64,000 nt of DNA from Salipiger bermudensis (GTDB lineage Archaea; Thermoplasmatota; Poseidoniia; Poseidoniales; Poseidoniaceae). Positions 10,141 to 60,536 of the stretch are shown here, piece after piece; positions within the stretch are counted from its first letter, which is position 1; every line of letters begins with the position of its first letter. A program made the translations under genes and the position numbers. Location: NCBI GenBank assembly GCA_964227855.1, contig CAXQWT010000040.1:2548-66547 (forward strand), read 5' to 3'. The notes below the pieces were generated by a model. That model searched no databases. It was not told the origin of the DNA and saw only the letters and a list, made by a program, of their open reading frames with translations.

Positions 10141-10163
10141 ATGCGAAGCAATCATCTCTTGAA

Positions 10164-14529: not shown

Positions 14530-14539
14530 TCCACCGACT

Positions 14540-14884: not shown

Positions 14885-14971
14885 GGTCATCGGATGGGTT
14901 TTCGAAGTTTTCTCCATCGAATCACTGCGCCGAAATTCCAACGGTTTGTTCATCGGGATGAATCGCTGAAG

Positions 14972-15313
14972 ATGGTTTTCATCATTAATCACGACCTGAA
15001 AATGGGGAAAGGAAAAATAGCAGCACAAGTCGGTCACGCGGCTGTTAAAGCTACTCTGAAATCGGGAGAACTCCAGCCAGAACTCCTCGATGCATGGCTC
15101 TCTACAGGGCAGAAAAAAATCTGTGTGAAGGCCGATGATGCAAGGCATATTGAGCAGATTGAACAACAAGCAAAGCAACTTCAGGTTCTTACATCAAAGA
15201 TTTACGATGCTGGCCACACTCAAATTCCAGCAGGTTCGCTAACCGTTCTTGCACTGGGCCCTGAAGACGATAAGAAACTCGATACATTAACGGGAGAATT
15301 GAAACTTCTCTAA
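14972..15313 (+). CDS. Peptidyl-tRNA hydrolase, PTH2 family (copy 2, tandem paralog). The upstream alternative start is at 14894.
   Basis: [25 protein letters not shown]...TVLALGPE carries the same PTH2 core motifs as copy 1 but is clearly diverged from it. Confidence 0.75.
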
Positions 15314-15351
15314 GTCGATTCTTTGAACATGGGAAACAAGGTGGACCAACC

Positions 15352-16398
15352 ATGCGCGACATCAACTCCAATCGGATTGACTTACGGTCGGATACCGTAA
15401 CCCAACCAACGATCGGAATGCGTGAGGCCATGGCACAAGCAGAAGTTGGAGACGATGTTCTCGGTGACGATCCTACTGTTCAGCAACTCGAATCGATGGT
15501 TGCTGAACTCTGTGGCAAGGAGGCTGGCCTCTTTGTTCCATCAGGAACCATGTCGAACGCTGTGGCATTGAAGACGCATACAGTACCAGGGGATGAGATT
15601 GTCACTGAGCGTTACAGCCACATCTACCTCTACGAAGGAGGCGGATATGCTGCTCTCTGTGGCTCAAGTATAGCTCTTCCAGAGGGAGTAAACGGCCTAC
15701 TAACGCCAGATCTCGTCGAACAATCCATCCGGAAGCAAAGCGGTTCGCAATCCCATTACCCGGATGGGACTCTGGTTTGCGTTGAGAATACAGCAAATCG
15801 CGGCGGTGGAACCTGCTACGAACAGGACGTTCTTGATGCAATTGCCGAAGTCTCGAAATCAAAGAATTGTTCAACGCACATCGATGGAGCCCGTATCTTC
15901 AATGCTTCAGTTGCAACAAACACAGCCTTGCCTCGAATGACACGCGATTACGATTCCATTTCCATTTGTTTATCCAAGGGCTTGGGCGCTCCAGTCGGTT
16001 CCGTACTCGTTGGTTCGGAAGCGTTCATTGAACAAGCCCATCGTTGGCGGAAAATGTTTGGCGGTGGCATGCGCCAATCAGGAATTCTTGCTGCTGCAGG
16101 ACTCTATGCACTCGAGAACAACATTCAACGAATGGAAGACGACCATCGTAGAGCGAGAACCATTGCTCAAGCAATTGATGAAATGGATCACGTTTCGGTG
16201 GACTTCGATGCCGTTCAAACCAATATGGTGTATTTCTCTGCAAGCAATTATTCTGCAAACGAAGTCTCACAAAAAATGGCTAAGGCAGGTATTGACATGT
16301 TCGATATTTCACCGACACATTGTCGAATCGTAACACACCTCCACATAACAGATGATGATGTCAAGAACGTTATCGAAGTGTTGTCGAATCTCGGTTGA
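15352..16398 (+). CDS. ltaE: Low-specificity L-threonine aldolase (PLP-dependent).
   Basis: N-terminal [12 protein letters not shown], the GTMSNAVAL region and [11 protein letters not shown] (PLP lysine region). Length ~350 aa. Confidence 0.85.
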
Positions 16399-16430
16399 AA
16401 CTTTTTAACACCTCGACAGACAAAACCTGC

Positions 16431-18689
16431 ATGATTGGGGAAGCCTGTGGCATCTGCCAAAACGAAAACATCGAAACAAACTGTTCAATCTGCATCCGCT
16501 GTGTTGAGTTAACAGAAGAAAGTAAATGGGCGCCGTCGTTACCTTTGGAGGTACATCAGCGAATGGCTGACGTCTTAGGTGGGCCTGTACGCTCACTTCG
16601 CAAACGATGGGGAAACCTTGAACGATTCATGTCTCATACTCCGGATGTTGATTGGGCCCGACTCGATGATCCCGAAATGGATCCGGTTCGAATGTCGCCT
16701 TTCCCTGAAGAAGAAGAAAAAATCTTCATTGAAAAACTTGAAAATCGAAGTGGTATTTCTGGTTATGAAAAAGAACGGTTGGAGGATGGCTTCCTCATGT
16801 CCGATGGAACTCTGCTATCCTTTATTGATGGAAGGATGTGGATTGATGGACGCTCACACGAAGCGAGAATTCCAACCGAGCAGTTTCTTCTTCTTCTCAT
16901 GAATACCGAAGAACGCAAAGGATGGGATGTAATCAAACTTTTTCTAGCGATCAGCGGGTTGTACCAAACAATCGATCTGCGAGGGCGGCCACAACGATAC
17001 ATGCAACGTTTCCATCGGCTTTTTGGTCAAATAGAGCGAGACCTTCTTTCTTCCTTTGACGCCTTTGCACAAACATCATTCCTCTTGGATCAAAATGAAC
17101 GAAGAAAGAAGATATCGAAGCTTCCAGATGAGCAAAGCTGGTCATATGAATTGATGAATCAACTTTCAGGGCGTCGTCCACGCCAAAGACTCAAGTTTGC
17201 GCGAAGGTTTATTCGAGAAGGGGAAAACAAATCCCTTTGCCCTTCAAAATGGCCTTGGGTTCAACGCTGGGTTGAAGTAAACAGTCAGGCCAATCACTCC
17301 AATGTTAGCTATCCATTCATGGTAAATGCAAAGGGTGTCCTTTGTTTTCGAACACTTGCTAAAAATGGAAATGTCCGACGAACTCCAATCCCGTTTCGTC
17401 CTGAATTATTGGCAGGTTTGATTTCGTGGGGATCGTCACCACATGCTTCGAAAGAAGGTGAATGGCTCATTGCTACACAAATGAATTGGACTGCGCCCTA
17501 TGGGGATGCAGAGACTGCAGACGTTCCATTCCGCCGTTCAATGCAATTCCTTCGAGGTGTACTCGAACAATTTCCAAACGATACCTGGGTTCACAGAGAC
17601 CGTTTACTCGTGCGAGGAATGCTTGGGCACTTCTACGAGGTCCGCATTAGCAGAGGAGCCCACAATGCACCCTTCAAAATCCATGGAGTAGGGAAAAAGC
17701 AAACACAGCGTCATTCGATTTGCATTCATACTGGAAAATACCATCGAGATATACCAATCGGAGACACGATTGCTATTGTTGTTCTCTCATTACTTTCGGA
17801 TGTCACCACTGGAAAACGCGTGAACAGTCTCCAAATGCATCTGATGACACAACCACCGATCGGCCATCCACAAAAGGATACAGGCGTAGACCCACAGACC
17901 TTTTACCAGACAAATGGCAGTGGATTTCGGTTTCCTTTGCACCCGCTCCTTCTTCGCGATGAAGGGGAGGTCGAAGAAATCGATTTGCAATCCCTTGATT
18001 TGATGACGGACAAGTCAATTGTTGAGGACTGGAGGATGCGTCCTTTGCGAGATGCAAGCTACGATCGGCCTGGCCATCTCAACCCTGCATTCGATTTTGA
18101 TTGGGATGATGAACAAATCCAAGAAGGGGACTTCTACCGCCGACGAGAAAACCCACCGTTCTTTCAGCAAATTCGAAACAACGTGATTGAGTACCGAGAC
18201 AATATAATCGAGTATAGAAACCTCGTTGAGGGCCGGCAGGACGAGGGTGAAGAAAGACCTCGTCTTGGCGACGATCAGTTTCATCGTTGGTATCATACGA
18301 TGCCCCTCGTATGGGAGGCTTTGTCCTTACAACCAATTGGACATCAAGTCGAACTAGGAGGAATTCGGGGCTTGTTTCGGATGCAGGGATGCAGGTTGAG
18401 ACTTACAATCCGCTCCGCTCAGGAGGAAGACGCCTTGCGACGAATTCTCGAAATCCTTGGATACCGACATGCTCGCTATCGGCAACTCAATCAAGTCTAC
18501 ATCCGCAGAGACTTCCCTATTGCAGATCCGCGACAGGTGCTGCGAGAACTGATGGAACCGATGACAGAAGAATTTGGTTTCGCTAACATTGATGATTACG
18601 TCCTTCGCTTCATCGAAGTAGGACGCCCGCCTGATCGGATGCCTGAAGTCGATGCACGTTTGCATGCAAACATGGTAGACTTTTACTGA
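16431..18689 (+). CDS. Large uncharacterised protein with an N-terminal Cys-rich zinc ribbon.
   Basis: The ORF-track start at 16395 is a TTG overlapping the ltaE stop; the first ATG is at 16431. The zinc ribbon is CGICQNENIETNCSICIRC. The remaining ~700 aa show no family I can recognise. It converges on the downstream gene with a 7-nt overlap. Confidence 0.5.
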   Translation: MIGEACGICQNENIETNCSICIRCVELTEESKWAPSLPLEVHQRMADVLGGPVRSLRKRWGNLERFMSHTPDVDWARLDDPEMDPVRMSPFPEEEEKIFIEKLENRSGISGYEKERLEDGFLMSDGTLLSFIDGRMWIDGRSHEARIPTEQFLLLLMNTEERKGWDVIKLFLAISGLYQTIDLRGRPQRYMQRFHRLFGQIERDLLSSFDAFAQTSFLLDQNERRKKISKLPDEQSWSYELMNQLSGRRPRQRLKFARRFIREGENKSLCPSKWPWVQRWVEVNSQANHSNVSYPFMVNAKGVLCFRTLAKNGNVRRTPIPFRPELLAGLISWGSSPHASKEGEWLIATQMNWTAPYGDAETADVPFRRSMQFLRGVLEQFPNDTWVHRDRLLVRGMLGHFYEVRISRGAHNAPFKIHGVGKKQTQRHSICIHTGKYHRDIPIGDTIAIVVLSLLSDVTTGKRVNSLQMHLMTQPPIGHPQKDTGVDPQTFYQTNGSGFRFPLHPLLLRDEGEVEEIDLQSLDLMTDKSIVEDWRMRPLRDASYDRPGHLNPAFDFDWDDEQIQEGDFYRRRENPPFFQQIRNNVIEYRDNIIEYRNLVEGRQDEGEERPRLGDDQFHRWYHTMPLVWEALSLQPIGHQVELGGIRGLFRMQGCRLRLTIRSAQEEDALRRILEILGYRHARYRQLNQVYIRRDFPIADPRQVLRELMEPMTEEFGFANIDDYVLRFIEVGRPPDRMPEVDARLHANMVDFY

Positions 18690-19626: not shown

Positions 19627-20700
19627 TCAATACTCTTTTTGCAGTACGCCATAGTCAACAATCTTGCCTGAGGCAACCTTTTTGAGAAGTGCTTTGAGCC
19701 GATTCTTGATGGTGTTACGACATTTGCCAATGGCTTGAGCAATGTTCTCAAGTCGACCTTGTTCCACACCAAAGGCTTCGCATGAAATTTGGAAAAGGAT
19801 GGCACACAAAACCTTGGCTCCGATGTTCTCCTGCGAAAGCGGAGAGCCGCTCATAGTAGGCTCGCCTAGGCGAAACAGTCGTTGTTTGTAATCGTCCATG
19901 ATTTGAGATTTCAAGGATTCATCGAGACCATCGAGAAGTTGCTTAAGACGAGCCGTTGTGTTCTGGATTTCGGTGTTTCGCAACTCAAACTGGACAGTTC
20001 GTCGGTCAGCCCGCTCTTCGATGAGTTTGGCTTTTTCACAGAGGTTGAGGTACTTCATCACAACTTTCGCAGCATCGACAACCTGCTTCAAGGTCAAGCC
20101 TGTTCCTTCGATCATCTGAGGCCAATCGATGTTGATTTTTCCAGTACGTTCTTGGTGAGCTCGTAGACAGGCAAGCGCAAGCAAACGTTCGTTGTTTTGC
20201 GTGCTACCTCCACGAGTCTTCTTTCGACATACCGAGTTCTTTGGAAGGATGATTTCATCCTCCGATGCAATCTCCTTGAGGGCCTTCGCCTTCTCACCTT
20301 CGAGTGGGACGGTTGCGAGTGCGATGACTTTCTTCGCTTTCATTGCGTTGTCCTTTCCTGCCAACTCCTTTGCAGCATCCATCGTGGCCTGAGCCATGGG
20401 GTGCATATCCTTGATGCCCTGATTGTTCAGGTTGCTTAGGATTTTCCACTTACCTTTTGCTTCACCTGGTCTACCGATGTATGAACCAAGTCCGTTTCCT
20501 TTGGACCCCGTCTTAATTTTCGATTCATCCTTTGTTGGCGTGTTAAAACTGTGCTCGCCCCACATTGTTCCTGCGTTATCGTTTTGTGTCGCCGACGCTT
20601 GATCGTCGATGACGAGGCCACAATCATTGCAAACCACTTCGCCTCGGGCAACATCCGCATTCAAGTCATAACTTCCACATTCTTCACACTTTTTCGTCAA
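19627..20700 (-). CDS. tfb: Transcription initiation factor TFB (TFIIB-like). It is a divergent copy with an extended linker and a diverged first cyclin repeat, and it uses a TTG start.
   Basis: N-terminal zinc ribbon CEECGS...CNDCG. The C-terminal cyclin/HTH region KVLCAILFQISCEAFGVEQGRLENIAQAIGKCRNTIKNRLK is recognisable. The start codon is a TTG (plus strand 20698-20700) preceded by GGAGGAA with 7-nt spacing. No in-frame ATG exists back to the upstream stop. Confidence 0.75.
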   Translation of the reverse strand: MTKKCEECGSYDLNADVARGEVVCNDCGLVIDDQASATQNDNAGTMWGEHSFNTPTKDESKIKTGSKGNGLGSYIGRPGEAKGKWKILSNLNNQGIKDMHPMAQATMDAAKELAGKDNAMKAKKVIALATVPLEGEKAKALKEIASEDEIILPKNSVCRKKTRGGSTQNNERLLALACLRAHQERTGKINIDWPQMIEGTGLTLKQVVDAAKVVMKYLNLCEKAKLIEERADRRTVQFELRNTEIQNTTARLKQLLDGLDESLKSQIMDDYKQRLFRLGEPTMSGSPLSQENIGAKVLCAILFQISCEAFGVEQGRLENIAQAIGKCRNTIKNRLKALLKKVASGKIVDYGVLQKEY

Positions 20701-20956
20701 TTTACTTCCTCCATGTTCTCTTTTGTACCAACATGATTAAGACGAGAACCTCGATGGGTAAGTAGAAGGGAGGTCCTGTCCGACACGCTGGAGTATACAC
20801 ATGGCTTCGGTTCTATTTAAGACCTTGCATTCATGTTGTAAATACGGCAAAACAAGAATCTTTCTTGTTTAGAATTCTATTATCCGACATCTTGGCCAAA
20901 GGGATTCGAAATCAACCTCTTACCAGAAAAAATAACAAAATACACACACGTTTCCT

Positions 20957-20962
20957 TTTATA
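20957..20962 (+). promoter_or_regulatory. Archaeal TATA box (TTTATA) about 26 nt upstream of the ATG at 20985, implying a leaderless or near-leaderless transcript of the AddB-like/AddA-like operon.
   Basis: The sequence is cctTTTATAcggtcgtcttctatgctgaggaATG. An A-rich tract (aaaaaataacaaaata) lies just upstream, in the BRE position. Confidence 0.5.
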
Positions 20963-20984
20963 CGGTCGTCTTCTATGCTGAGGA

Positions 20985-23900
20985 ATGGGGGAGAATGTAG
21001 TGAACATCACGGTTGAAGCATGCTCTCCGGAATACATCGTTCCTTCATGGTTGATTGCTGATGTTGCAAACGGAAGGGATGATATTCTTGTCATCTATCC
21101 AAATGAAACAACACGATCAAACTCGATGAAATTAATTCTTCAAAAGACAGGAACAGTCGATTCAAGCAGACATACAACACTTCACCGACTTGTCAAAGCA
21201 CTCGCAATTGACTTCAGACTCCCCGTCGTTGTCCCTGCATCCACGATTGGTCTTGTTCAAGTTCATGAGAAACTAGCCGCTGCAGCCTCAGAACATCGTT
21301 TCCCTCGCCTCCATCCGGACACAACTCGTCCGTGGACCCTCTCGAAATCTGAGCGATTGCTCAAACTCCATTCTTATGCGACGAGCCATCAGATTTTTTC
21401 CGAATGGAAAGACGATCCTGGAGCATACGAAGCAGAACGAATTCTTTCAACTTTCGAGAAAGATGGTCTTCTCCACGAACATCACGTCCAGTCTCGACTT
21501 TGCTTACATCTGTCGGATACTGAGATTCCAGTTCCTTTCACCCTTGGAGCAATTTCTGGAATACTGCTTCTCAATCATCCACCAGATTTTTCTGAGAATG
21601 AAAAGCGATTCCTGAAAGCACTATCACTGAGGGCCCCAATTCATCATTTGTGCGTTAGCGGTTCCTTCCGCCTGGGGTATCATGGCGCTTACATTGATGA
21701 TGGAATTAAAGCCATTAATGAGGAAGAGAAACTACCCTCATGGGTCCCCCGACACCCCGTTCAGAGAGTTCAACCACAACCTGATGATTACGCGACAGAA
21801 GGCGTTCACATCCTGAGTTTTGATCAAGCGACACAAGTGATGGATGCAGCACTTTCGGCATTACAACTTTACCGAAATCATTCAGGGGGTTCCGTCTTAC
21901 TCGTCGACGCAAACAAAAGCAGACACCGCGATTGGGTTCGTCGCCTGAACCAAATTGGCTTCACATCCAAAACTCAATCCGATGTTGTGGGGAGTACGTC
22001 GGCCGTACAAGCAATCCTCCGTTTCTTATCGATATCTCGAGGACAAGACGCTTGGTCAGCAACCAAGTTGTTTGACATCATCCAATCACAGACATTCCCA
22101 CTTCTTGGCAATTTGTTTGCGGATCTTGAACACCCAACCAACAAAGATTGGCGGCCACATCCGCATTTGGATGTTATCGAAAACATCGGTCGAAGCTTCC
22201 ACGTTCTCGGTGGGAAAGGAGCCTTACAACGATGGCTTGGATCCTTATCTGCTGCAACGCCATACTCCATGGAAGCCTATCGGCGTGAGAAAGAATCGCA
22301 AGAACTCGAGGAAACACAATGGTGGTTACAATGTCTGGCAGTCTCTTGGTCAGCCCTTTTGAGCGAACAGGAATGCAAATATCTTGATGCGGAATGTGTT
22401 GGTACATCATCGAAAGAGGTCCTTCCTTTACCACAGGTAAGCAAATTTCCAAGGGATGTTCTCACATCGATGTTGCAAGCATGTGACTGGGAGAGTTTGT
22501 TCGCTCGGACTCAGCGGTACGATGCTTCTGTAGGTGCTGTTCAAAATTGGATACAAGCCATTGATGCATTGCTTCAGTATGATTCAAGCGTTGATTTCGT
22601 AGAACTTTGCCGGATAGCATCGGAGCAAACGAAGATACCAAACCATCGTGTTGATCACTCAGATGTGCGCATTTGCACGCCGCTTGAAGCATATGGTGTT
22701 GAATCAGACATCACACTGTTTGTTGGTCTTGATGCAGAATCATGGTCAATGAAAGCAGAGCGGATTCCTTGGGTTGATGATGCCGTTCGGGTAGAATTAG
22801 GTCTAACGGATGGAGATTTACCAATCCGACGTGCACGTCATTTGTTCAAGTCATTACTTAATGCCAGCCAACAAGCGATTCTTTTTGACACGGAACACGA
22901 CGAATCCGTAGGAAATTCTACGCCAGTTGCTGAATATCTTTCAATGGTAGAATTGAATGGTTATCTCTCAACGTTGAGGCAAGCTCCAGATTTCATAAAA
23001 CCATTAATTTCTGATGGTGCAGGGTGGTCGATGATGACAAGAGATGATGGAAATGTCGTTACCTATCGAAGTTCAGCACTTTCTATCAATGGTCGCGAGG
23101 TGCTCCTCGAACGTGCGGAAAATTCGCTTCGAGACCAACAACAACAAGCAGGCCTTGAACTCAGATCCATTCGCCATCCAACCACCCTCGTCCAATCCTC
23201 CAATTCAATTGCAGCTCGACATGAACGGGAAATCAATCTTGATCGATTCCGCCGTCAACCGAAGTTCAAACCCTTGGAAAATGGGAGCACCATGAACTGG
23301 GCGACAAGAAACAATCTGTTGACGACGACGAACCTCATCATTCAGCCCACCGTATCTCAAGCGAGTGTTGCCGGAGGCAGAACGGCGACTTCTTATCCTC
23401 ATCTTGGTTACAAAAAGAATGGAATCTCAAGAGGGCCTTCTATCGATCCAAGACCGCTTCCACCACCACAATTTGATTCTCAGAGTTTGACCGCTATTCT
23501 ATCAACCAAAACAAGGGATGAAGAACCGAGAATCTGGTCAACAAGTCGATTGAATCCTTGGTTCATATGTCCTCGACAAGCCTGGACCGAACAGGTTTTG
23601 CAGGCAACAGAATCTTCACCAGAACCTTCTGAAGACATCGCACCGCTGACAAAAGGAACACTGGTACATTCCATTGAAGAGCATCTCTTGACAATGCTCG
23701 GGATTGAGGTTGGCGGCCGGCCACTCCCAATAGGCACGCCAATGCATCTCGGAGTCTTGCTTTCAGAACAAGAGATGTGGGAAAGTGTACTTGGTCGCTT
23801 ATCAGAACTCGCCCCTTGGTTAGCGAGAACCAACGCAGTTTCTGTTCACCGTTGCAATGACCTTATTGGATGCACGCCAGAAAATTGGAATGCGTGGATT

Positions 23901-24677
23901 GAAGGTGGTCAAGAATTACCAATCAACGGACGATTAGGGCGCCTCCTCCTCGCCGATCTTCGCCTCACATCTGCTGCTCCAATTGCGAGTGAATGGGCGC
24001 TTGAGCATGGAAGCGAGCAATACGTCGAGATTCAAGGATTCAACGATTCGATGGACATCGCTTCAATCAATGTCCGTGGGAGAATTGACCGTGTTGACCA
24101 TATTGTCTTCTCTGCTGAAGATATTGAGCAATTACATGAGAATGGCCTTTATGCAGAGGACGCTGAAGAATTACCTCTCTTCTTTACCGGCAAGGAGGCA
24201 CCTGCAAAACGCTTCATCATTATCCGAGATATCAAAACCATTGAGGGGCCAAAACCTGGACAATCGGGCGTACGTCACACTGCAGGGTTGTTCAAAGAAA
24301 TCCAACTTGCCATGTATGCTCGAGCATGGGAAATTGCACATCCAGGGGACCGCGTCATTGGGGTTGGGATTTCAGAAGTTGGTGATGACACCGAGCATTT
24401 TGTTGAACTAGATCCGAGTTTCCATTCACTCACCGCCCACCTTAATTTCGGAACGCCAACCACATATTCGACAAACCACTTTCGCATTCCAAATGAAGAT
24501 GCAAGTCCCCAAAGCAACAGTTTCCGCGCATGGATGAGTTCCCGGATCACATCTGCATTGCGAGCGCGTGACGCAAGCCAACTTGGTTGGAATCATCCGA
24601 CGCCGGGCACACACTGCTCCTATTGTTCACTTGCAAATGCCTGTCCATCGGCATCGATCGGAGGTGAGTTGAAGTGA
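20985..24677 (+). CDS. AddB-like subunit: a large protein with a C-terminal RecB-family (PD-(D/E)xK) nuclease domain bracketed by a 4-Cys (Fe-S staple-like) cluster. The N-terminal ~900 aa have no recognisable P-loop.
   Basis: Nuclease motifs are RGRIDRVDHIV (II), IIIRDIKTI (III) and QLAMYARAW (QxxxY). Cysteines are WFICPRQ upstream and HCSYCSLANAC at the C-terminus (24615-24644). The stop overlaps the GTG start of the next gene (GTGA at 24674-24677). Confidence 0.65.
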   Translation: MGENVVNITVEACSPEYIVPSWLIADVANGRDDILVIYPNETTRSNSMKLILQKTGTVDSSRHTTLHRLVKALAIDFRLPVVVPASTIGLVQVHEKLAAAASEHRFPRLHPDTTRPWTLSKSERLLKLHSYATSHQIFSEWKDDPGAYEAERILSTFEKDGLLHEHHVQSRLCLHLSDTEIPVPFTLGAISGILLLNHPPDFSENEKRFLKALSLRAPIHHLCVSGSFRLGYHGAYIDDGIKAINEEEKLPSWVPRHPVQRVQPQPDDYATEGVHILSFDQATQVMDAALSALQLYRNHSGGSVLLVDANKSRHRDWVRRLNQIGFTSKTQSDVVGSTSAVQAILRFLSISRGQDAWSATKLFDIIQSQTFPLLGNLFADLEHPTNKDWRPHPHLDVIENIGRSFHVLGGKGALQRWLGSLSAATPYSMEAYRREKESQELEETQWWLQCLAVSWSALLSEQECKYLDAECVGTSSKEVLPLPQVSKFPRDVLTSMLQACDWESLFARTQRYDASVGAVQNWIQAIDALLQYDSSVDFVELCRIASEQTKIPNHRVDHSDVRICTPLEAYGVESDITLFVGLDAESWSMKAERIPWVDDAVRVELGLTDGDLPIRRARHLFKSLLNASQQAILFDTEHDESVGNSTPVAEYLSMVELNGYLSTLRQAPDFIKPLISDGAGWSMMTRDDGNVVTYRSSALSINGREVLLERAENSLRDQQQQAGLELRSIRHPTTLVQSSNSIAARHEREINLDRFRRQPKFKPLENGSTMNWATRNNLLTTTNLIIQPTVSQASVAGGRTATSYPHLGYKKNGISRGPSIDPRPLPPPQFDSQSLTAILSTKTRDEEPRIWSTSRLNPWFICPRQAWTEQVLQATESSPEPSEDIAPLTKGTLVHSIEEHLLTMLGIEVGGRPLPIGTPMHLGVLLSEQEMWESVLGRLSELAPWLARTNAVSVHRCNDLIGCTPENWNAWIEGGQELPINGRLGRLLLADLRLTSAAPIASEWALEHGSEQYVEIQGFNDSMDIASINVRGRIDRVDHIVFSAEDIEQLHENGLYAEDAEELPLFFTGKEAPAKRFIIIRDIKTIEGPKPGQSGVRHTAGLFKEIQLAMYARAWEIAHPGDRVIGVGISEVGDDTEHFVELDPSFHSLTAHLNFGTPTTYSTNHFRIPNEDASPQSNSFRAWMSSRITSALRARDASQLGWNHPTPGTHCSYCSLANACPSASIGGELK

Positions 24678-27600
24678 TTTCTTTCAACAGAAGCCAGCGT
24701 TTGGGCCTGAACTTGGATCAGCACATTGCTTTGGATGCTGGAGCAGGCACAGGAAAAACGACCGTCATGGCAGAACGATACGTTCAGCATCTCTTATCTG
24801 GTGAACAACGAGCAACGCATGTGTTGCCACCTCCAATACGACAAGAACCGTTCGGCTCAGGAAAAATTTTGGCGGCAAAGCGTGATCGAACACCGTTAAA
24901 CGAATGGAAAGGCCTCTTGCCTCAAGAGATTGTTGCAATAACGTTCACTCGAAAAGCTGCATCCGAACTCCGTTCTCGCATCCGCCAACGAATTCAATCC
25001 CTGCGTGCAAACCCGGTCAATGAAGAGGATAGAATGGGCGTTCACGACCCTCGGCTTCGCCACCAAGGCGATGTCTCAATGCTGATGTCATTGCTCGAGG
25101 CAGCACCAATTTCAACGATTGATGCTTTCCTGTCTGAAATATTGGCGCCTCACATTGACCTGGTCGCTCTTCATTTGAGTAGAGAACAATTGCCTGAAGA
25201 GAAAGCACCTCTCCTACGTACACAAGCCCTCAATTCAGCTTGGAGAATTCGGAATGCTCGTGATGCTATCGAGGCAGGAATGCTCCAATCTGCAGATGAG
25301 TTTATCGCCGCTCGAAACCGACTAGCAATCCGACTCGGCGGGCAGCAGAGTGCTCAAACTGTGTTGGAGGGCCTTCTGGAATCCTCACTGTTTGTTGAGG
25401 AATCAAGACGTCGTCTTCGTTCTCGTTCCATTCGACTAAACTTGCCCTGGGACGGCCACTCTCCCCCCGATTATCGTTTGATTGAGGATATGATTTTGCA
25501 GGAGTGTCAACACCTGGTCGACCCAGTTGTTGAAGACGTTCATGCAGTTCTCAATGAATGGGTTGATGTTTTTCTTCAGTATCACTCAATTTTTGTTGCA
25601 CCAGCACAGACGGAAACAACGAGCACTCGATTCAACCAACTTGTCCACCTGGCAAGAGAATCACTACCTGACACGCCAATTGAACGGCTTCAATGGCTGT
25701 ATCAGGTCGTAGCCTCTGCGACTTCCTTTACTCAATTGAATGAGGTTACCCCTTCTCTTCTGAAAGGAGGAAACTTCCCACGTAACAATTCGCTTGCGGG
25801 ATGGCCAGCAGGTTTGATGACATGGTCCTCCGTGCTCAAAGGAAAGGATGAGAAAGGTCTGAAAAATCAAATTTCAGCTGCCGCTTCGGACGCAGCAGAA
25901 CGATTGCAACACCGCATTCATGACCCAACAGATGGTAGGCTTGTTTTCATGCTCTCCAAAGTGGCTTACTGCCTTAATCCATCTCGCCCATTCGTTCATA
26001 GAGATGCAAACGAGCGCTACGATCATCAATTGCTTGGCCTTCAATTGAGTCAAGAACCACCTCATGCAAACATGCGAGTTTCCAGAGAACTCCAAGTTGA
26101 AGTTCTCAATGATCTTTACATCGTACACTCAGGTTGCCAAGATTTACTTCGCCATCTAAAGTCTCAGGAAGAGGCCCATGATTTCGATGACGTGCAGGTT
26201 ATGGTTGGAGATTTACTTCTTGCGCGCTGCCCAGCGATCGTTCGTCACTGGTACCCTCCAGAGGCTGTACAGGCTTTGGATGATCTTGGAGATGAACCAT
26301 GGTCTGATGAACACATCCGGAGAGCTCTTACAATCATGCAAGGCGATGAACAGAAATACGTTGATTTGCAACGAAGGTATGCGCTCCTAAAACAGATTCG
26401 TGCTCGATATCGAGCATTCATTATCGACGAATATCAGGATACGAATCCTGAACATGCACGTCTTCTTTCACGATTGTGGGGCCGCCGTGAAGGCATATCG
26501 GACGAACATCCAGCACCATTAGGTCCGTGGGATCCGACCATTTGTATTGTTGGAGATATGAAACAGAGCATCTACCGATTCAGACAGGCTGAGGTCACCG
26601 TTATGCGTCGTATGGTTGCATCAATTCGTGTTGCCAACAGCATCGAAAACAATGAGCCAAGGCTAGAATCCTTTACTCAAAATGGGCATGGACGAGATCC
26701 ACGACCAATTGGCGCAGGAGGTGAATCAGGTTCGTTCATTCAGGCATCGGACTTTTCGCGTGAAGAGCAATCAGCCCCTTGGGATTACGTTTCTTTCGGT
26801 ATCGATGATTCCGGGTTAGCAAACGATGATTCGACTACGCAAGAACGAACCGAAGGACACATCCAATTGCGAACAAATTTCCGTACAGCCCCTGGTTTGC
26901 TTCGAACACTCAACAATATGTTTGATGATACATTTGATGCAAGACATCATCAGTTCCCAGGGGATTTTCATGCAACTGCACAGCCTCTTGACGCTGGTCG
27001 AGAAACCTCCAGCGAAGGAGTGATTGAATGGCTTCTTCCAACCCAAAACAACACTGATGAATTACCCTTGGATATGATGGAAGGATACAATCTCTACGAT
27101 GCGGGGAATGCCAACCTCCGTCATCTCGAACATGAACTCATCGCCTCAAGGTTGGACGCTTTGGTTCGAGGATTGTCGACTCAAATTTGGTCTGTAGAAG
27201 CTGCAGCGTATGTCGAAATAGAGCCAGAAGAGACAATCTCACCTGAAGATGTCATGATTCTCGTACATTCTCGTAAGCACATTCCTGATCTTGTAGCCCG
27301 TCTTCAGTCACGAGGCCTACCTGTTATGGCGGATAAACAAGGCGAGTTGCTCAAACAACCCGTTGTTCAGCCACTGATGGCGGTTCTGGAACTTCTCGCA
27401 CATCCAAATTCAAGACATGCTGCTCACTCCTTTGTTCGTTCGTCAATCATTGGTGCTTCATCCGTGCAAATCGAGGAGTTATTAGGAACTGAAGCCATTG
27501 AAAATTACTGGCTCCATGCTGCGGAATATTTTGCATCAGCGCCACAAGGCCCCCTTCTGGCAGCATTTGCTCAAATGGTTCAACATGGTGCAATTTACGA

Positions 27601-29647
27601 AGTCTTCGATGCAGTGTTAGACTACAGTGATTTGCTCATTGCCTTCCCTGATGAATCTGAACGTCAAGTAGCGGAAATGTGGTGTGCATTAGTTCAGAAG
27701 ATTGGGTCCGATACTGGCCATGAACCAGCGGCAATTCTAGAACAAATGAGGGCATTTGCAACACTCGGAAACAAGGGTCCGCAAGCGAGCACATCCCCGA
27801 CGAGCGGGGCAATTCAAATTATGACCATCCATGGTGCAAAGGGGCTACAAGCACCGGTTGTCGTTGTAACCGGATTGTTTGAAGCTGGACGCCGTAGTTC
27901 AAGTATTGAAGCGCAAAACAACGTTCTAATCACGCCTGATGTCATCGCCGGAAGGATTCAGCCATGGAAGTCTAAAGAGAAACCAGAAGATGCTCTTTGG
28001 ATGCTAGCAGAACAAATGAATAAGGCCCAGAATCAGGCCGAATTGCGACGTCAATTCTACGTAGCTTTAACTCGCGTTAAAGATCGACTTATTTTTGTTG
28101 GATCCCCAAATGCACCGTGTTCCATCGGTGAGGATTTCATGGTGAAGATGAAAATCAATTCGAAAGGGAACAATATGGGTGATTTGATGCTGGATGGATT
28201 CCGATACATGGGACTTCGTTCTGGAGATGAACAAGTATGGAGTTTGGAAGGTGACGTGCAAGGTGAACGTATGGTTGAATACGGAGAACAAGTGTTGGAA
28301 TTTGATCCTATTGCTCTTTTCCAAGCAAGCGGATTCATGGATGAATCACTTCAACAATTGCGCATGTACCATCATCCTGATTGCTTTTCAACCCAAACAC
28401 CGACCTCAGTTCTATCAAATTGGTTGGATATCGAGGAACGTCTTTCAGAGCCTGTTGAAGCTACTCAATCTGACCAACAAATGGTCCATCAAGCGCCAAC
28501 ACTCCGGATGACGGCACATGGATTGGATACTGCAAATTCGTGCCGACGTAGATATTGGTTGTCGCACATGAAGGGATGGCAAAGTGAACCTTTTCACATT
28601 GGAGGCAGTTCAAGACTGCCAGCCGACGAAGAAGAATTCAAAGACCGTTCAGGTGGAGAGGACTTGGAGCAAGCAGTCATCGGTTGGCCTTCTGCAACAT
28701 CATTCGGGTCTATGTTTCACAGACTTGTTGAGATTGGTCTGGCCAATCCAGCCGAAATGAGATCTGATAAATTTGAACTGAGTCCAGCATGGCTGAATGC
28801 TCAGACAAATCATCTATTGTCGAGCAAAGAAATCGACGACGCAACGCAATCACAGCCAGAATGGCATCGATTATCCCGCGAAGAACAACAGCAAACTCGA
28901 GTAAGAATCATCGAACTCGCAACCTTGCTGACAAATGGATCCTTGGGAAGGATGGTCGATGGTGAAGAAGTCAATGGTTGCCAAATCGAAGGTTTACGAA
29001 CAGAAGCATCGTTCATTTACGACCATGAAGTAAATCTTGAAGGCCTCGTGCGTTCACCACTGACGCAATTGAATCGATTGTATGTTACGCTCATTGAATC
29101 GGTCAACATTCTCTTTGAAGGGCAGGCTGATCTTGTTTTGGCTGGTGTTCAAGACGAACGTTCATGGTTGCAAGTTGTCGATTTGAAAACGTCAGGTGCT
29201 CGCGAAGAAGTCCTCGAGAGTCATTCGTTGTATGATTCTTTGAAAGAGCCGTTTTCGTTTGAACCACAAAACGATACTGAGCTCCAAATGCTTCAAAATC
29301 ACCGTCTTCAACTTACCCTGTATTCTCTTGTCTTCCGGCGGCAAGAGGAACGAAAACCAGCTGACCAGCGAAGAGAGGTACGGCCTCCTGCATTACTGAT
29401 TGCAAGTACCGGGCGTTTTGTCCAAATGCCTAACAAAATGTACGAAGAGGCAGAGAAGGAATTGGGCCGTCTCCTCGATTGGATGGCAAACTTGACCGCT
29501 AATCCGAACGGCACTGATGAACCGAAACGTCTTCCGATGGAATTTATGGACACGTGTAAGAAATGTCCCTTCTTCAAGGGTGATGTGCGAATGTGTGGTC
29601 CACAGGGAATGGAATTGGGATTCAACGCTGACTCTTCTTCCCAATGA
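24674..29647 (+). CDS. AddA-like subunit: a UvrD/Rep superfamily-1 helicase with a C-terminal RecB-family nuclease and 4-Cys cluster.
   Basis: The GTG start is forced, since an in-frame TGA lies 9 nt upstream. Walker A is DAGAGTGKTT (24740-24760). Motif Ia is AITFTRKAASEL; II is IIDEYQDTN (26426-26446); III is GDMKQSIYRFRQA; IV is LRTNFRT; V is IMTIHGAKGLQAPVVVV; VI is YVALTRVKDRL. Nuclease motifs are QADLVL...VVDLKTSG and LQLTLYSLVF. Cysteines are NSCRRRYW upstream and CKKCPFFKGDVRMC (29555-29596). Confidence 0.8.
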   Translation: MISFNRSQRLGLNLDQHIALDAGAGTGKTTVMAERYVQHLLSGEQRATHVLPPPIRQEPFGSGKILAAKRDRTPLNEWKGLLPQEIVAITFTRKAASELRSRIRQRIQSLRANPVNEEDRMGVHDPRLRHQGDVSMLMSLLEAAPISTIDAFLSEILAPHIDLVALHLSREQLPEEKAPLLRTQALNSAWRIRNARDAIEAGMLQSADEFIAARNRLAIRLGGQQSAQTVLEGLLESSLFVEESRRRLRSRSIRLNLPWDGHSPPDYRLIEDMILQECQHLVDPVVEDVHAVLNEWVDVFLQYHSIFVAPAQTETTSTRFNQLVHLARESLPDTPIERLQWLYQVVASATSFTQLNEVTPSLLKGGNFPRNNSLAGWPAGLMTWSSVLKGKDEKGLKNQISAAASDAAERLQHRIHDPTDGRLVFMLSKVAYCLNPSRPFVHRDANERYDHQLLGLQLSQEPPHANMRVSRELQVEVLNDLYIVHSGCQDLLRHLKSQEEAHDFDDVQVMVGDLLLARCPAIVRHWYPPEAVQALDDLGDEPWSDEHIRRALTIMQGDEQKYVDLQRRYALLKQIRARYRAFIIDEYQDTNPEHARLLSRLWGRREGISDEHPAPLGPWDPTICIVGDMKQSIYRFRQAEVTVMRRMVASIRVANSIENNEPRLESFTQNGHGRDPRPIGAGGESGSFIQASDFSREEQSAPWDYVSFGIDDSGLANDDSTTQERTEGHIQLRTNFRTAPGLLRTLNNMFDDTFDARHHQFPGDFHATAQPLDAGRETSSEGVIEWLLPTQNNTDELPLDMMEGYNLYDAGNANLRHLEHELIASRLDALVRGLSTQIWSVEAAAYVEIEPEETISPEDVMILVHSRKHIPDLVARLQSRGLPVMADKQGELLKQPVVQPLMAVLELLAHPNSRHAAHSFVRSSIIGASSVQIEELLGTEAIENYWLHAAEYFASAPQGPLLAAFAQMVQHGAIYEVFDAVLDYSDLLIAFPDESERQVAEMWCALVQKIGSDTGHEPAAILEQMRAFATLGNKGPQASTSPTSGAIQIMTIHGAKGLQAPVVVVTGLFEAGRRSSSIEAQNNVLITPDVIAGRIQPWKSKEKPEDALWMLAEQMNKAQNQAELRRQFYVALTRVKDRLIFVGSPNAPCSIGEDFMVKMKINSKGNNMGDLMLDGFRYMGLRSGDEQVWSLEGDVQGERMVEYGEQVLEFDPIALFQASGFMDESLQQLRMYHHPDCFSTQTPTSVLSNWLDIEERLSEPVEATQSDQQMVHQAPTLRMTAHGLDTANSCRRRYWLSHMKGWQSEPFHIGGSSRLPADEEEFKDRSGGEDLEQAVIGWPSATSFGSMFHRLVEIGLANPAEMRSDKFELSPAWLNAQTNHLLSSKEIDDATQSQPEWHRLSREEQQQTRVRIIELATLLTNGSLGRMVDGEEVNGCQIEGLRTEASFIYDHEVNLEGLVRSPLTQLNRLYVTLIESVNILFEGQADLVLAGVQDERSWLQVVDLKTSGAREEVLESHSLYDSLKEPFSFEPQNDTELQMLQNHRLQLTLYSLVFRRQEERKPADQRREVRPPALLIASTGRFVQMPNKMYEEAEKELGRLLDWMANLTANPNGTDEPKRLPMEFMDTCKKCPFFKGDVRMCGPQGMELGFNADSSSQ

Positions 29648-34722: not shown

Positions 34723-36693
34723 GTGGTATGGATGATTGAAGTATTTGCAGCATTAATATTCTTCTTCACCGTCATTGGTTTTGCGACGTTCTATGTCCAA
34801 CGCGGCATTGGCAACATGGCAGATCCAATGCGCCAATTCGGTCTTTTCCTTCTCAACAAAGCACCTGCAGGAATTGTTGATCTTTTCAACGATGACAAAG
34901 GTAGCGGATCAAAGACTTGGATGAACCTAGGAATGATTTGGCTTACGTTCGCTGCGATTGGAACGTTTCTGGCTCTATGGCATGATTATGATGGCACTGC
35001 ACTCGATTCCTTGGCGAGCATTGGTTGGTCCTATGACGATGGAAGTGCTCTGAACACATTTGTTGATCTGACACTTATGACAGGGCTCATCTCAATTCTC
35101 ATCGGCGGTGGACTCGTTGCTGCAGCACGAGCAGGAGCAGGACGTCTGGCAAGTGAGGCGAACGCAAGCCTTACTGCAATTCTGTTCTCTGTCTTGACCA
35201 TTTCATCGATGCTCTTGCCAACCATTCTTGGTCTTCTTATCGACTTGACTCCTGCCAATGAAGCCCTCATCCAAGATCTCTTCATGCATGCTTTGCGCTC
35301 GTTCATCATTATCGCTGTAATGATCAACGTTCTCCTAACCGTATCACAGCGTAAAGGTGAGATTGTTTCTGCAAGTAACTGGTTCTTGTTCATGGCTCTT
35401 GCATCGTTTATCTTCGGATCCCAATTCAGGTTCTTTGGGGAGTTAGCCGGATCTACTCAAACCGTTTGGCTTGGTGAGCGAATGTCCCAATCTTGGACAC
35501 TTATCGCACTCATCTTCTCAGTCGCCTACCACGTTGTACCACGAGCTGCGAGCCGACCGATTTGGTCCGACTCGATGACCAAGGCGAGCCTCCTTCTCCT
35601 CTTCCTCACATTACCGCCGTTCATCCTATCTACAGCGGATGCTGGAACACTTCTGGAGAACCTTGGTGCCATTTTGATGACACTTGCTCTCCTTCCAATC
35701 ATGGCTGGTTCTGTGAACATCATCATGACTTCACTTAGCAACGCAACTGGAGTCGTCTCCCGTCCTGGAGCCCTTGCAGCAACATTGGCAATGGTCTTTT
35801 TCCCACTCTATGCGCTTGGCGGGTACTTCACTTCCTTGGATGTCTTCATCGGCCTTGGAGCCTTGAACGACATGGCTGCAACTGTCGACATCGGGTTCAT
35901 GTGGACCGTTGGTGGTTTGATGGCCGTGGCATGTGTCGCAGAATCCTACCCATTGGCTGGAAACCGCCAACTTGCATCACCTTCCTCAGCATCTCTTTCA
36001 ACGATGTTGATCGCCTTCGGTGGCGTCACATCGACGGTTGCTAAACTCATGGGTGACTTTACCGAGAAGGCCCTCCTTGACTCTGGTAGCGAAGATGTTG
36101 TCATGACCGATGGAGGCTTCAGCCTAACAGCAGCAGTTTTGTTTTATTTCGGCTCAATTGGTATCATCCTCCTGTTCCTTAACCTCATTCGAACCTCTAT
36201 TGGTGGAATGAAAGTCGACACCTCAGTCTCAACAGTTTCCGATATCTCTCGTTATTCGATGCAGCGTGGAGAATCCTCAATTCGCAAACTTTTGCAACGT
36301 GGCGTTGGAGTTGACACAATTCTCGTGGTCGGTGCGGATGTCGAAGACGATGGCGGCATGACCATTATCGACGTATCCTCAACCCTTCACAACGATGAAA
36401 TCGATGAGTTCCCGGTAGAGAAGAATGAATTGGAAATGTTGTCAGATTATCTTGAAAAGAAAGAGATGAGCATCTTCGAATTCTTCCGCTCGATTGATCT
36501 CGATGACTCCGGTCTTATTGATGGATATGAGCTACAACAAGCCCTACGAAGCGCTGACATCGCTGATCTTCCACCATGGGATATTGCCAAGTTGATGGCA
36601 TTCGTCGACCTTGATGGTGACGGACGAGTCAATCTCCCTGAACTTGACATTGCAATTGCTCGTGTTCGTTCAGGCGTAACTGAAGAAGAGTGA
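34723..36693 (+). CDS. Polytopic membrane protein (about 12 or more TM) with a C-terminal EF-hand pair.
   Basis: Many hydrophobic segments across ~480 aa. The C-terminal soluble domain carries two 12-residue loops, DLDDSGLIDGYE and DLDGDGRVNLPE, in canonical EF-hand spacing. Confidence 0.5.
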   Translation: MVWMIEVFAALIFFFTVIGFATFYVQRGIGNMADPMRQFGLFLLNKAPAGIVDLFNDDKGSGSKTWMNLGMIWLTFAAIGTFLALWHDYDGTALDSLASIGWSYDDGSALNTFVDLTLMTGLISILIGGGLVAAARAGAGRLASEANASLTAILFSVLTISSMLLPTILGLLIDLTPANEALIQDLFMHALRSFIIIAVMINVLLTVSQRKGEIVSASNWFLFMALASFIFGSQFRFFGELAGSTQTVWLGERMSQSWTLIALIFSVAYHVVPRAASRPIWSDSMTKASLLLLFLTLPPFILSTADAGTLLENLGAILMTLALLPIMAGSVNIIMTSLSNATGVVSRPGALAATLAMVFFPLYALGGYFTSLDVFIGLGALNDMAATVDIGFMWTVGGLMAVACVAESYPLAGNRQLASPSSASLSTMLIAFGGVTSTVAKLMGDFTEKALLDSGSEDVVMTDGGFSLTAAVLFYFGSIGIILLFLNLIRTSIGGMKVDTSVSTVSDISRYSMQRGESSIRKLLQRGVGVDTILVVGADVEDDGGMTIIDVSSTLHNDEIDEFPVEKNELEMLSDYLEKKEMSIFEFFRSIDLDDSGLIDGYELQQALRSADIADLPPWDIAKLMAFVDLDGDGRVNLPELDIAIARVRSGVTEEE

Positions 36694-60437: not shown

Positions 60438-60536
60438 ATGCTCTCCCACTGTTTCTTCCGATGAAAGGGAGACTTGAATGCGTTTCTCTTGTGCTTGTGA
60501 CTTCGGCGGTGAGTTCAAAGGTTGAATGTCGAGGGA

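Follow-up and report, generated by a model that had tools for sequence, protein, structure and literature searches.

RecBCD, AddAB and AdnAB are by tradition considered to be bacterial and Mre11-Rad50-HerA-NurA archaeal, and archaeal addAB genes were reportedly noted by Cromie in 2009. In a passage of PMC2887965, Cromie 2009 is cited for the transfer of addAB "even into the archaea". With this citation and the haloarchaeal megaplasmid pairs described below, the view of AddAB as strictly bacterial, which was taken in the first-pass annotation of the DNA studied here, proved to be overstated.

In bacterial AddAB (RexAB; B. subtilis, PDB 3U44/3U4Q/4CEH-4CEJ) the two genes are adjacent, translationally coupled and arranged B-then-A. 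The A subunit joins an SF1A motor, having a Q-motif and a Phe-Arg pawl in motif III, to a RecB-family nuclease, and the B subunit joins a motor-dead helicase-like body to a C-terminal four-cysteine "iron staple" nuclease. B. subtilis AddB has a Walker A motif, although some AddB proteins are known to be without it (PMC3064778). Mycobacterial AdnAB (PDB 6PPJ, 9NP6) is also a heterodimer, built of two UvrD-like-plus-nuclease subunits, in which the lagging subunit AdnA keeps a motor-like domain that binds nucleotide; an Fe-S cluster, positioned at the fork junction, is described for AdnA only (PMC13000450). The archaeal Mre11-Rad50-HerA-NurA proteins, whose presumed task is likewise to provide 3' tails at DNA ends for RadA, are unrelated, and use a hexameric FtsK-like translocase and NurA in place of an SF1A motor and dual RecB-family nucleases. 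We have analysed a gene pair, ORF1 and ORF2, whose products we consider likely to pair as a heterodimeric helicase-nuclease of the AddAB type that is native to the archaea of Marine Group II (Poseidoniales), where the recombinase is RadA instead of RecA.

Gene coordinates and operon structure

Within the window, which is the whole 64,000-nucleotide stretch of DNA that was analysed, the two giant ORFs lie on the + strand in a B-like then A-like order, as had been proposed by comparison with Bacillus addB-addA. ORF1, the AddB-like subunit (20985..24677, 1230 aa), opens with an ATG, and ORF2, the AddA-like subunit (24674..29647, 1657 aa), opens with a GTG (24674-24676) that overlaps the TGA stop of ORF1 (24675-24677) in the sequence GTGA; coordinates, sizes and overlap were exactly as first claimed. 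The junction at 24660..24677 (+ strand) reads GGAGGTGAGTTGAAGTGA and contains, ahead of the ORF2 GTG, GGAGGTGA (24660-24667), which resembles a Shine-Dalgarno sequence. In the Thalassarchaeaceae and deep-lineage loci, too, the two genes overlap or abut, and this conserved adjacency, read together with the junction, suggests that ORF1 and ORF2 are co-transcribed and translationally coupled, as in bacterial AddAB. A pattern scan of the intergenic region 20701-20984 found a TATA-like hexamer, TTTATA (20957..20962, + strand), 28 nt upstream of the ORF1 ATG, which may be an archaeal promoter giving rise to a leaderless ORF1 transcript. Since both proteins have full-length homologues over a wide range of identity as well as invariant catalytic residues, ORF1 and ORF2 are real genes. 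The host belongs to the Poseidoniaceae, and the surroundings were confirmed to be archaeal, with MCM (7870-10140), GatE (10164-12212), a protein with a TFIIB zinc ribbon (19627-20700, - strand), Trm1 and PAC2 all identified in the window.

Domain architecture of the two subunits and their relatives

ORF1 consists of an inactivated SF1-helicase-like body (about aa 1-840) and a C-terminal PD-(D/E)xK "iron-staple" nuclease domain of the RecB family (23532..24674, + strand, about aa 850-1230), with the motifs IDRVDH, IRDIKT and QLAMY at aa 1034, 1080 and 1107. In alignment A1, composed of 29 family sequences, C862, H895, D1035, D1082, K1084, Q1107, Y1111, C1211, C1214 and C1220 were invariant, and the four cysteines fit the AddB/Cas4 Fe-S pattern C...CxxCx5C. 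The earlier remark that ORF1 has no recognisable P-loop held, as no Walker A was matched in it even by a loose pattern, nor was a motif II or any other ATPase motif found in ORF1 by alignment and pattern scan.

Full-length homologues of ORF1 range from 79% down to 28% identity and usually carry no annotation beyond "hypothetical" or "PD-(D/E)XK nuclease family protein". When PDB sequences were searched with the single sequence and with the family profile nothing useful was obtained (a weak Cas4 match, E 0.054), other weak Cas4 matches were also to the nuclease domain, and the curated AddB/RexB equivalogs (TIGR02773/TIGR02786/TIGR02774) gave 19.5 bits (addB_alphas) against a cut-off of 486. An exhaustive profile search, for which alignment A3 was built from shorter ORF1-family members, matched only 471 proteins among 1.84 billion representatives. 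The 150 of these matches that were listed have the appearance of ORF1-family proteins, complete or fragmentary, with no bridge to bacterial AddB among them, and ten that were looked up bore only the names Poseidoniales or Thalassarchaeaceae, or no name. The predicted structure of ORF1 matched AddB end to end, above AdnA, RecC and UvrD, and in both fold searches AddB ranked over AdnA and RecC, with AdnA second-best. Since sequence and profile searches stay within ORF1's own family, it is this predicted fold, at about 11-12% sequence identity, that points to homology with AddB.

ORF2 has the layout of the A subunit, with a complete SF1A UvrD/RecB-type motor region (24674..28123, + strand, aa 1-1150) followed by a RecB-family PD-(D/E)xK nuclease domain (28511..29644, + strand, about aa 1280-1657). 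All of the motifs quoted earlier for the two proteins were located in the translations, those of ORF2 being GAGTGKTT (aa 23), TFTRKAA (90), DEYQDTN (585), GDMKQSIYRFRQA (627), IHGAKGL (1052), YVALTRVKDRL (1129), VVDLKTSG (1501) and QLTLY (1546). The motor motifs, which were invariant across the family in alignment A4, comprise the Q-motif (S7/Q8), Walker A (AGAGTGKT, aa 22-29, with K28), motif II (DEYQD, 585-589), motif III (GDMKQSIYRFR, with the F636/R637 "pawl") and motifs V-VI (IHGAKGL and YVALTRVKDRL); the roles of the equivalent AddA residues, Q15 and F446/R447, are described in PMC13000450. In the nuclease domain H1349, D1486, D1503, K1505, Q1546 and Y1550 were invariant, as were the cysteines C1290, C1628 and C1631, while C1641 was at least 90% conserved. 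B. subtilis AddA has, to our knowledge, no Fe-S or cysteine cluster, and ORF2 further differs from it in being about 425 aa longer, with insertions. Pfam matches to UvrD-helicase, UvrD_C, AAA_19 and PDDEXK_1, together with these located, family-invariant motifs, bear out the claim that ORF2 has the full UvrD/Rep SF1 motif set and a RecB-family nuclease.

Homologues of ORF2 range from 86% to about 42% identity among the matches listed. The best PDB relative of ORF2 was AddA (3u44_A, E 1e-13 with the single sequence), to which it is about 25% identical over the helicase core, and the family profile ranked AddA (6e-32) above AdnB (1e-15) and RecB (1e-13). An AF2 model of aa 1150-1657 (pLDDT 79.5) had the Dna2 nuclease (5ean_A, E 3e-5) as its nearest match, followed by AddA (4cej_A, 6.5e-5), AddB and Cas4. 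NCBIfam scores of 148 bits for recB and 137 bits for addA were both far under cut-offs of about 700, and against the curated AddA equivalogs TIGR02785 and TIGR02784 ORF2 scored 137 and 111 bits, the cut-offs being 708 and 861. Thus HMM searches did yield UvrD, PDDEXK, AddA and RecB matches for ORF2, but the curated AddA, AddB and RecB thresholds were reached by neither protein, and judged by sequence the pair falls outside the curated bacterial AddAB families.

A pair on plasmid3 of Synechococcus sp. NIES-970 (BAW97989/BAW97988 "addA") has the same B-then-A order; its genes overlap, its B subunit lacks Walker A, and both of its subunits end in a Cas4-like nuclease with C...CxxCx5C, giving a cysteine cluster on each subunit as in the window pair. 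Over the helicase region ORF2 shares about 25-27% identity with this pair; however, the Synechococcus proteins, at 890 and 1078 aa, are far shorter, are plasmid-borne in a bacterial host, and are far nearer to canonical AddA (addA_Gpos 303 bits versus 137 for ORF2). The haloarchaeal megaplasmid pairs (Halapricum desulfuricans pHSR-Est01 WP_229123132/133; Natrinema pellirubrum pNATPE02) likewise have an archaeal host, overlapping genes in B-then-A order, and a B subunit with the Fe-S cysteine pattern and without Walker A. Unlike the window pair, with 111 and 19.5 (addB_alphas) bits, they score 340 bits for addA_alphas and 75 bits for addB_Gpos, their A subunit is without a cysteine cluster, and they are carried on plasmids in variable contexts, with Mre11/Rad50-like genes beside one and BrxA beside another. 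ORF2 is only 25% identical to the haloarchaeal A subunit, the alignment of ORF1 with the B subunit was confined to the nuclease domain (hhalign probability 94%), and the haloarchaeal pairs look like a separate acquisition. Since archaeal addAB is said to have been noted in 2009 and the haloarchaeal copies are more canonical, our result is incremental rather than categorical; we regard the pair as a new, highly divergent member of the AddAB kind, archaeal addAB itself having been known earlier.

Distribution, inheritance and alternative explanations

At least 347 GTDB species genomes encode a relative of ORF1, and all 78 loci returned by the scan for such relatives, CM001443.1 included, are from Poseidoniales. 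Wherever the contig was long enough, the returned loci had the same neighbourhood, in which a beta-eliminating lyase precedes ORF1-ORF2 and an alpha/beta hydrolase and PS decarboxylase follow. The Thalassarchaeaceae keep the wider arrangement of MCM-GatE-PTH2 and the pair, and on a 3.0 Mb contig of 71% GC, whose GatE is only 48% identical, MCM-GatE-PTH2, the pair and PSD-radical SAM were still found in place. The tetranucleotide composition of 20985-29647 was the most typical of any 8.7 kb stretch in the window (r = 0.972) and its GC3 was in line with that of the neighbouring genes, so that the composition test for a recent transfer of the pair was negative and the comparison with the flanks proposed in the first-pass annotation found a native pair. 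The survey of related archaea thus describes a pair that is near-universal in Poseidoniales and has a fixed housekeeping neighbourhood. Given this spread, the native composition, and a neighbourhood shared by Poseidoniaceae, Thalassarchaeaceae and a deeper relative of high GC, the pair is an ancient, vertically inherited core operon, and is neither a recent import nor a defence island nor an assembly artefact. Any horizontal acquisition was ancient, at or before the base of Poseidoniales/Poseidoniia, and the operon was probably taken over from bacteria no later than the time when the lineage arose, with vertical descent since.

It had been left open whether the pair was a horizontally acquired resection machine or an anti-MGE module. 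That it is a dedicated anti-virus/anti-plasmid helicase-nuclease which destroys linear invaders, in the manner of the defence-associated UvrD-Cas4 fusions (Hudaiberdiev et al. 2017), of Gabija GajB or of RecBCD in its anti-phage capacity, seems unlikely to us. Phage DNA is indeed degraded by RecBCD and AddAB, ORF2 matches GajB-type UvrD models in PADLOC, a BrxA gene adjoins one of the haloarchaeal pairs, and PMC5704561 associates UvrD-Cas4-like fusions of bacteria and mesophilic archaea with type III R-M and Dcm/Vsr gene contexts. However, the PADLOC matches were only generic UvrD-type ones for ORF2 (GajB, RTasHel) and weak Cas4 ones for ORF1, no defence genes were found flanking the pair in the window, and no R-M, Dcm/Vsr, GajA or other defence partner adjoins it. 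A fixed chromosomal site among housekeeping genes, from Poseidoniaceae to the deep high-GC relative, is furthermore the reverse of what defence systems show, which is a patchy distribution on islands. In a tblastn search that covered 72,556 plasmids, ORF1 had no match and ORF2 only matches of 23-27% identity in the helicase region, and an origin in, or affiliation with, mobile elements was rejected on this plasmid evidence. Near-universality in the order, the housekeeping neighbourhood, and the lack of defence neighbours and of close plasmid relatives thus favour resection and recombination over defence.

In another reading the helicase-nuclease serves a different task, such as Dna2-like processing of flaps and stalled forks or the degradation and recycling of genomes. 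This is decidedly improbable, as the likeness to Dna2 is limited to the common iron-staple nuclease fold, whereas the two-subunit architecture, the SF1A polarity class (Dna2 being SF1B) and the end-to-end match to AddB are those of the AddAB design.

The first-pass annotation had described the operon as AddAB/AdnAB-like, and of this the AddAB half stands by sequence, profile and fold, whereas the AdnAB half does not, because ORF1 is without ATPase motifs. A machine with two active motors as in AdnAB, whose AdnA is the second-best structural match to ORF1, would need nucleotide-binding motifs on both subunits, and ORF1 lacks both Walker A and motif II, whereas the motor-like domain of AdnA binds nucleotide (PMC13000450). 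In a RecBCD-like machine ORF1 would be a nuclease-dead, RecC-type scaffold accompanied by a separate SF1B RecD; the nuclease site and Fe-S-pattern cysteines of ORF1 are, however, intact, and a RecD-like gene was found neither in the window nor in any of the related loci. RecC has, as far as we know, neither an active nuclease nor an Fe-S cluster. With AddB placed above AdnA and RecC in both fold searches, we regard either arrangement as very unlikely.

That a bacterial fragment was mis-assembled into an archaeal contig is scarcely credible, for although the SF1A UvrD/RecB family is typical of bacteria and one related contig (L044) is filed under a "Rhodobiaceae bacterium" MAG, that contig carries archaeal neighbours at 62-91% identity and is therefore mis-binned, the composition of the pair is indistinguishable from the remaining window, and chimeric assembly is ruled out by the same junctions in more than 80 independent assemblies. 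The same archaeal genes flank the pair upstream and downstream in those independent MAG loci that are long enough to show them, and also in metagenome contigs, in CM001443.1, which is a scaffold of 2.06 Mb, and in contigs measuring 0.78, 1.5 and 3.0 Mb.

Proposed mechanism and significance

By analogy with B. subtilis AddAB, the AddAB-type complex of ORF1 and ORF2 would bind a double-stranded DNA end, where ORF2, as the only ATPase, would translocate 3'-to-5' along one strand and unwind the duplex. The 3' strand would be passed to ORF2's own C-terminal nuclease and the displaced 5' strand to the nuclease of ORF1, while the ATPase-dead helicase-like body of ORF1 would act as a scaffold and strand guide, and possibly as a scanner for a Chi-like sequence. 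Each of the two nuclease domains may be braced by an Fe-S cluster held on four cysteines. Processing of this kind would provide the archaeal recombinase RadA with a 3' single-stranded tail, and would make the repair of double-strand breaks and collapsed forks the primary role, with degradation of linear foreign DNA as a by-product, as is the case with RecBCD and AddAB. On this analogy, single-motor, dual-nuclease processing of double-strand-break ends is the most likely role of the pair.

Marine Group II archaea, the commonest planktonic archaea at the ocean surface, are globally abundant in UV-exposed surface water, are uncultured, and have been reported to undergo gene replacement by recombination. 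In the literature we found nothing linking Poseidoniales/MGII to AddAB, RecB/UvrD, Mre11/Rad50 or HerA/NurA, and the comparative-genomics papers Rinke 2018 and Deschamps 2014 do not mention the helicase-nuclease pair. No mre11, rad50, herA or nurA was found within the 64 kb window. It is conceivable, though doubtful, that the AddAB-type machine is the main or only system of double-strand-break end resection in MGII, having displaced or sidelined Mre11-Rad50-HerA-NurA, and that it feeds RadA and possibly has its own Chi-like sequence read by the ORF1 body. If so, bacterial resection and strand exchange of the archaeal/eukaryotic type would be naturally combined in MGII.

The finding would place an AddAB-type machine in the conserved core of an entire archaeal order that is abundant worldwide. 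Since MGII live in UV-exposed surface water and are uncultured, the way in which they repair breaks matters for their ecology, as well as for the gene replacement by recombination that has been reported in them. The pair adds a very distant point to the evolution of AddB, with Walker A lost and putative iron-staple nucleases on both subunits, and may serve as a natural test case for the coupling of a bacterial resection motor to RadA.

Operon layout and the two subunits

The first-pass annotation had placed a bacterial-type AddAB/AdnAB-like operon in an archaeal genome; the operon is real and this reading was essentially right, although the surprise is smaller than claimed, since AddAB-like genes had already been recorded in archaea. 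ORF1 (20985-24677, forward strand; ATG start, 1230 aa) and ORF2 (24674-29647, forward strand; GTG start, 1657 aa) have precisely the coordinates first assigned to them, and every motif quoted for them was recovered in the same order and spacing. At the junction, GGAGGTGAGTTGAAGTGA, the GTG start of ORF2 and the TGA stop of ORF1 lie in a four-base overlap, with a Shine-Dalgarno-like GGAGGTGA ahead of the GTG. A TTTATA hexamer, located 28 nt 5' of the ORF1 ATG, would fit an archaeal TATA box for a leaderless first gene. The neighbouring genes (MCM, GatE, a TFIIB-zinc-ribbon protein, Trm1 and PAC2) are archaeal, as had been proposed. The TFIIB-zinc-ribbon gene (19627-20700, reverse strand), divergent from ORF1, codes for a 357-aa protein of which the N-terminal zinc ribbon was the only recognised part. 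Its position is constant throughout the Poseidoniaceae and its product is very fast-evolving (22-27% identity between genera, against 62-75% for neighbours); at the Thalassarchaeaceae locus L079 no gene of its size and orientation was called at that position. The protein may be a divergent TFB paralogue whose gene has a promoter region in common with the AddAB-like operon.

ORF2, the AddA-like subunit, carries the Pfam domains UvrD-helicase, UvrD_C and AAA_19 and a C-terminal PDDEXK_1. Its top NCBIfam scores were to recB (148 bits), addA_Gpos (137) and addA_alphas (111), with PcrA, UvrD and Rep ranking lower, and all fell far short of the equivalog cut-offs (about 700-860 bits). By sequence, the solved structure nearest to ORF2 was B. 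subtilis AddA (single-sequence E 1e-13), and a 20-sequence family profile gave E 6e-32 for AddA versus 1e-15 for AdnB and 1e-13 for RecB. Residues S7 and Q8 of the Q-motif, K28 of Walker A, DEYQD (585-589), the motif III Phe-Arg pair F636/R637 and the later helicase motifs are invariant in the family. In AddA, Q15 and F446/R447, which have counterparts in ORF2, serve as the adenine contact and the translocation pawl (PMC13000450). The nuclease catalytic residues H1349, D1486, D1503, K1505, Q1546 and Y1550 are kept in the family, as are four cysteines (C1290, C1628 and C1631, with C1641 at 90% or more). A structure model of residues 1150-1657 (pLDDT 79.5) was nearest in fold to the Dna2 Fe-S nuclease (E 3e-5), followed by AddA, AddB and Cas4. 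B. subtilis AddA is not known to have a cysteine cluster of this type.

By sequence alone, nothing in ORF1 could be identified except a PD-(D/E)xK nuclease at the C-terminus, with weak matches to Cas4 and AddB, and searches of the PDB with ORF1 or its family profile gave no useful match. An AlphaFold2 model of residues 31-1230 was built from a 40-sequence alignment (mean pLDDT 82), and Foldseek placed five AddB chains on top over the full length (E 2.6e-18 to 5e-17, TM about 0.51), ahead of AdnA (1e-14) and then UvrD-like helicases and RecC (2.6e-8). On this fold evidence ORF1 is an AddB-like protein, with a helicase-shaped, motor-dead body and an active-looking nuclease. As annotated, ORF1 lacks a Walker A, and a relaxed pattern did not reveal one either; such a lack is a known state in part of the AddB family (PMC3064778). 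In an alignment of 29 family sequences (28-78% identity to ORF1), nuclease residues H895, D1035, D1082, K1084, Q1107 and Y1111 are invariant, as are C862 and C1211-x2-C1214-x5-C1220, the iron-staple pattern of AddB and Cas4.

Distribution, gene order and age

In a word-indexed search all 99 ORF1 matches were full-length or nearly so (1127-1312 aa), the named ones all coming from Poseidoniales or Thermoplasmatota MAGs, with identities in three tiers (57-79%, 34-39% and 28-30%); ORF2 behaved in the same way. The genome to which the window belongs is one of the Poseidoniaceae (MGIIa). Surveying one genome per GTDB species revealed an ORF1 relative in at least 347, and all 78 loci returned were from Poseidoniales (Marine Group II, MGII), including CM001443.1, the earliest MGII genome, which was published in 2012. 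Against 1.84 billion cluster representatives the ORF1 profile matched only 471 proteins (E <= 1e-3); the 150 listed were family-sized full-length proteins or short pieces covering part of the profile, and the ten that were checked were named Poseidoniales or Thalassarchaeaceae, or nameless. No match outside the family was among those 150, and the search thus gave no sequence link to any bacterial AddB; at this level ORF1 appears as an isolated, lineage-specific family.

The pair is preceded by a beta-eliminating lyase, a 764-aa protein, and a 315-aa and the TFIIB-zinc-ribbon protein (both reverse strand), and is followed by a methyltransferase (reverse strand), an alpha/beta hydrolase, a 262-aa protein and phosphatidylserine decarboxylase (PSD), an order seen across the 78 loci wherever the contig was long enough. 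Thalassarchaeaceae (MGIIb), which form the 28-30% tier, keep MCM-GatE-PTH2-...-lyase-ORF1-ORF2 with overlapping genes. MCM-GatE-...-PTH2-...-ORF1-ORF2-...-PSD-radical SAM is kept in L082 (ENA ERZ26167216; 3,002,195 bases, 71% GC), with a GatE 48% identical to that of the window and a pair of 1164 aa (AddB-like) and 1558 aa (AddA-like) at locus positions 10001-18168; this contig appears to be a deep, high-GC, larger-genome relative of MGII. Neither a conserved third gene nor RecD was found in the flanks of the pair, be it in the window or in related loci.

Two contigs call for separate mention. A contig of an "uncultured Rhodobiaceae bacterium" MAG (L044, CALDQY010000209.1) has the Poseidoniaceae lyase/TFIIB-zinc-ribbon/ORF1 neighbourhood, its proteins being 62-91% identical to those of the window; it is archaeal and was wrongly binned with a bacterial MAG. 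In MAG SP314 two contigs, L025 and L026 (PBET01000034.1 and PBET01000024.1), each hold the complete locus and are about equally similar to the window (68% for either ORF1), which suggests that the bin mixes strains or contains a duplicated region.

In tetranucleotide profile, 20985-29647 resembles the remainder of the window more closely than any other 8.7 kb stretch does (r = 0.972; mean 0.944), and GC and GC3 match those of neighbouring genes. The first-pass annotation had allowed for a defence module; distribution, synteny and composition argue against a mobile defence island. The same three lines exclude a recent transfer, and the fixed neighbourhood, distribution and native composition dispose of a chimeric assembly. 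Because of its distribution, synteny and composition, we conclude that the pair is no younger than the base of the order, and probably no younger than that of the class. Since members of the SF1A UvrD/RecB clade are typically found in bacteria, and since early bacterial-to-archaeal transfers into the core of the MGII/III lineage are documented in general terms (PMC4122925), a bacterial origin of the pair is naturally inferred.

Several other genes in the window drew attention. A 2758-aa ORF (41419-49695, reverse strand) lies in the compositional outlier of the window, where the tetranucleotide correlation drops to 0.85 (mean 0.94), and has a weak Reg_prop repeat as sole Pfam match; it may code for a giant surface/adhesion-type protein or have been acquired more recently. 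A 1326-aa ORF with FG-GAP and fibronectin-III repeats (47-4027, forward strand) and a 1139-aa ORF with no Pfam match whatever (60522-63941, forward strand) are probably cell-surface proteins. A 656-aa protein (34723-36693, forward strand) ends in an EF-hand pair (EF-hand_7, E 4.6e-8), the remainder being unrecognised; in archaea, proteins with calcium-binding EF-hands are uncommon.

Comparison with known systems

Bacterial AddAB is the closest characterised system. The closest layout is that of a pair on a cyanobacterial plasmid, annotated addA, which has C...CxxCx5C in both subunits and a B subunit without Walker A, like the pair described here; since it has both clusters, dual cysteine clusters are not unique to MGII. 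The abstract of Cromie (2009) reportedly describes unexpected archaeal addAB genes and AddB subsets without Walker A or the Fe-S motif. Overlapping AddB/AddA-like gene pairs were found on haloarchaeal megaplasmids, under generic names that do not give AddAB: a PD-(D/E)XK protein of 1062 aa and a UvrD-domain protein of 1212-1237 aa. In Halapricum desulfuricans plasmid pHSR-Est01 (L083; NZ_CP064792.1 69211-81556) the pair is divergent from Mre11/Rad50-like genes, and in Natrinema pellirubrum pNATPE02 (L084) it adjoins a BrxA gene. These pairs stand much nearer to the canonical type (addA_alphas 340 bits, addB_Gpos 75 bits); their A subunits share only about 25% identity with ORF2, and their B subunits align with ORF1 in the nuclease domain only. 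They look like a separate acquisition. A passage of PMC2887965, citing Cromie 2009, has addAB transferred "even into the archaea". The defence-linked UvrD-Cas4 fusions of Hudaiberdiev et al. each consist of one protein and occur in R-M or Dcm contexts, and the MGII pair differs in both respects. Our literature search found no paper describing an AddAB-like pair in MGII.

Proposed role in MGII

With the architecture, fold and conservation observed here, the pair very probably belongs, as a structural and biochemical class, to the AddAB-type helicase-nucleases. By analogy with AddAB, ORF1 and ORF2 would form a heterodimer that binds a DNA end, with ORF2 as the sole ATP hydrolyser tracking 3'-to-5'. 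The 3' strand would be cut by the ORF2 nuclease and the 5' strand by that of ORF1, while the cysteines would bind clusters and the Fe-S domains keep fork and nuclease folds in position. The helicase-like domains of ORF1 would steer the 3' strand and perhaps scan it, and the resulting 3' tail would be passed to the recombinase RadA. Break repair is likely to be its main job in the cell, where it might even take the place of the canonical archaeal Mre11-Rad50-HerA-NurA resection system; linear foreign DNA would be degraded secondarily, as for RecBCD/AddAB, which is compatible with a repair role.

What is new is a core operon, syntenic and close to universal in Poseidoniales, that encodes a very divergent AddAB-type family, with iron-staple cysteines on both nucleases and a B subunit recognisable by fold only.
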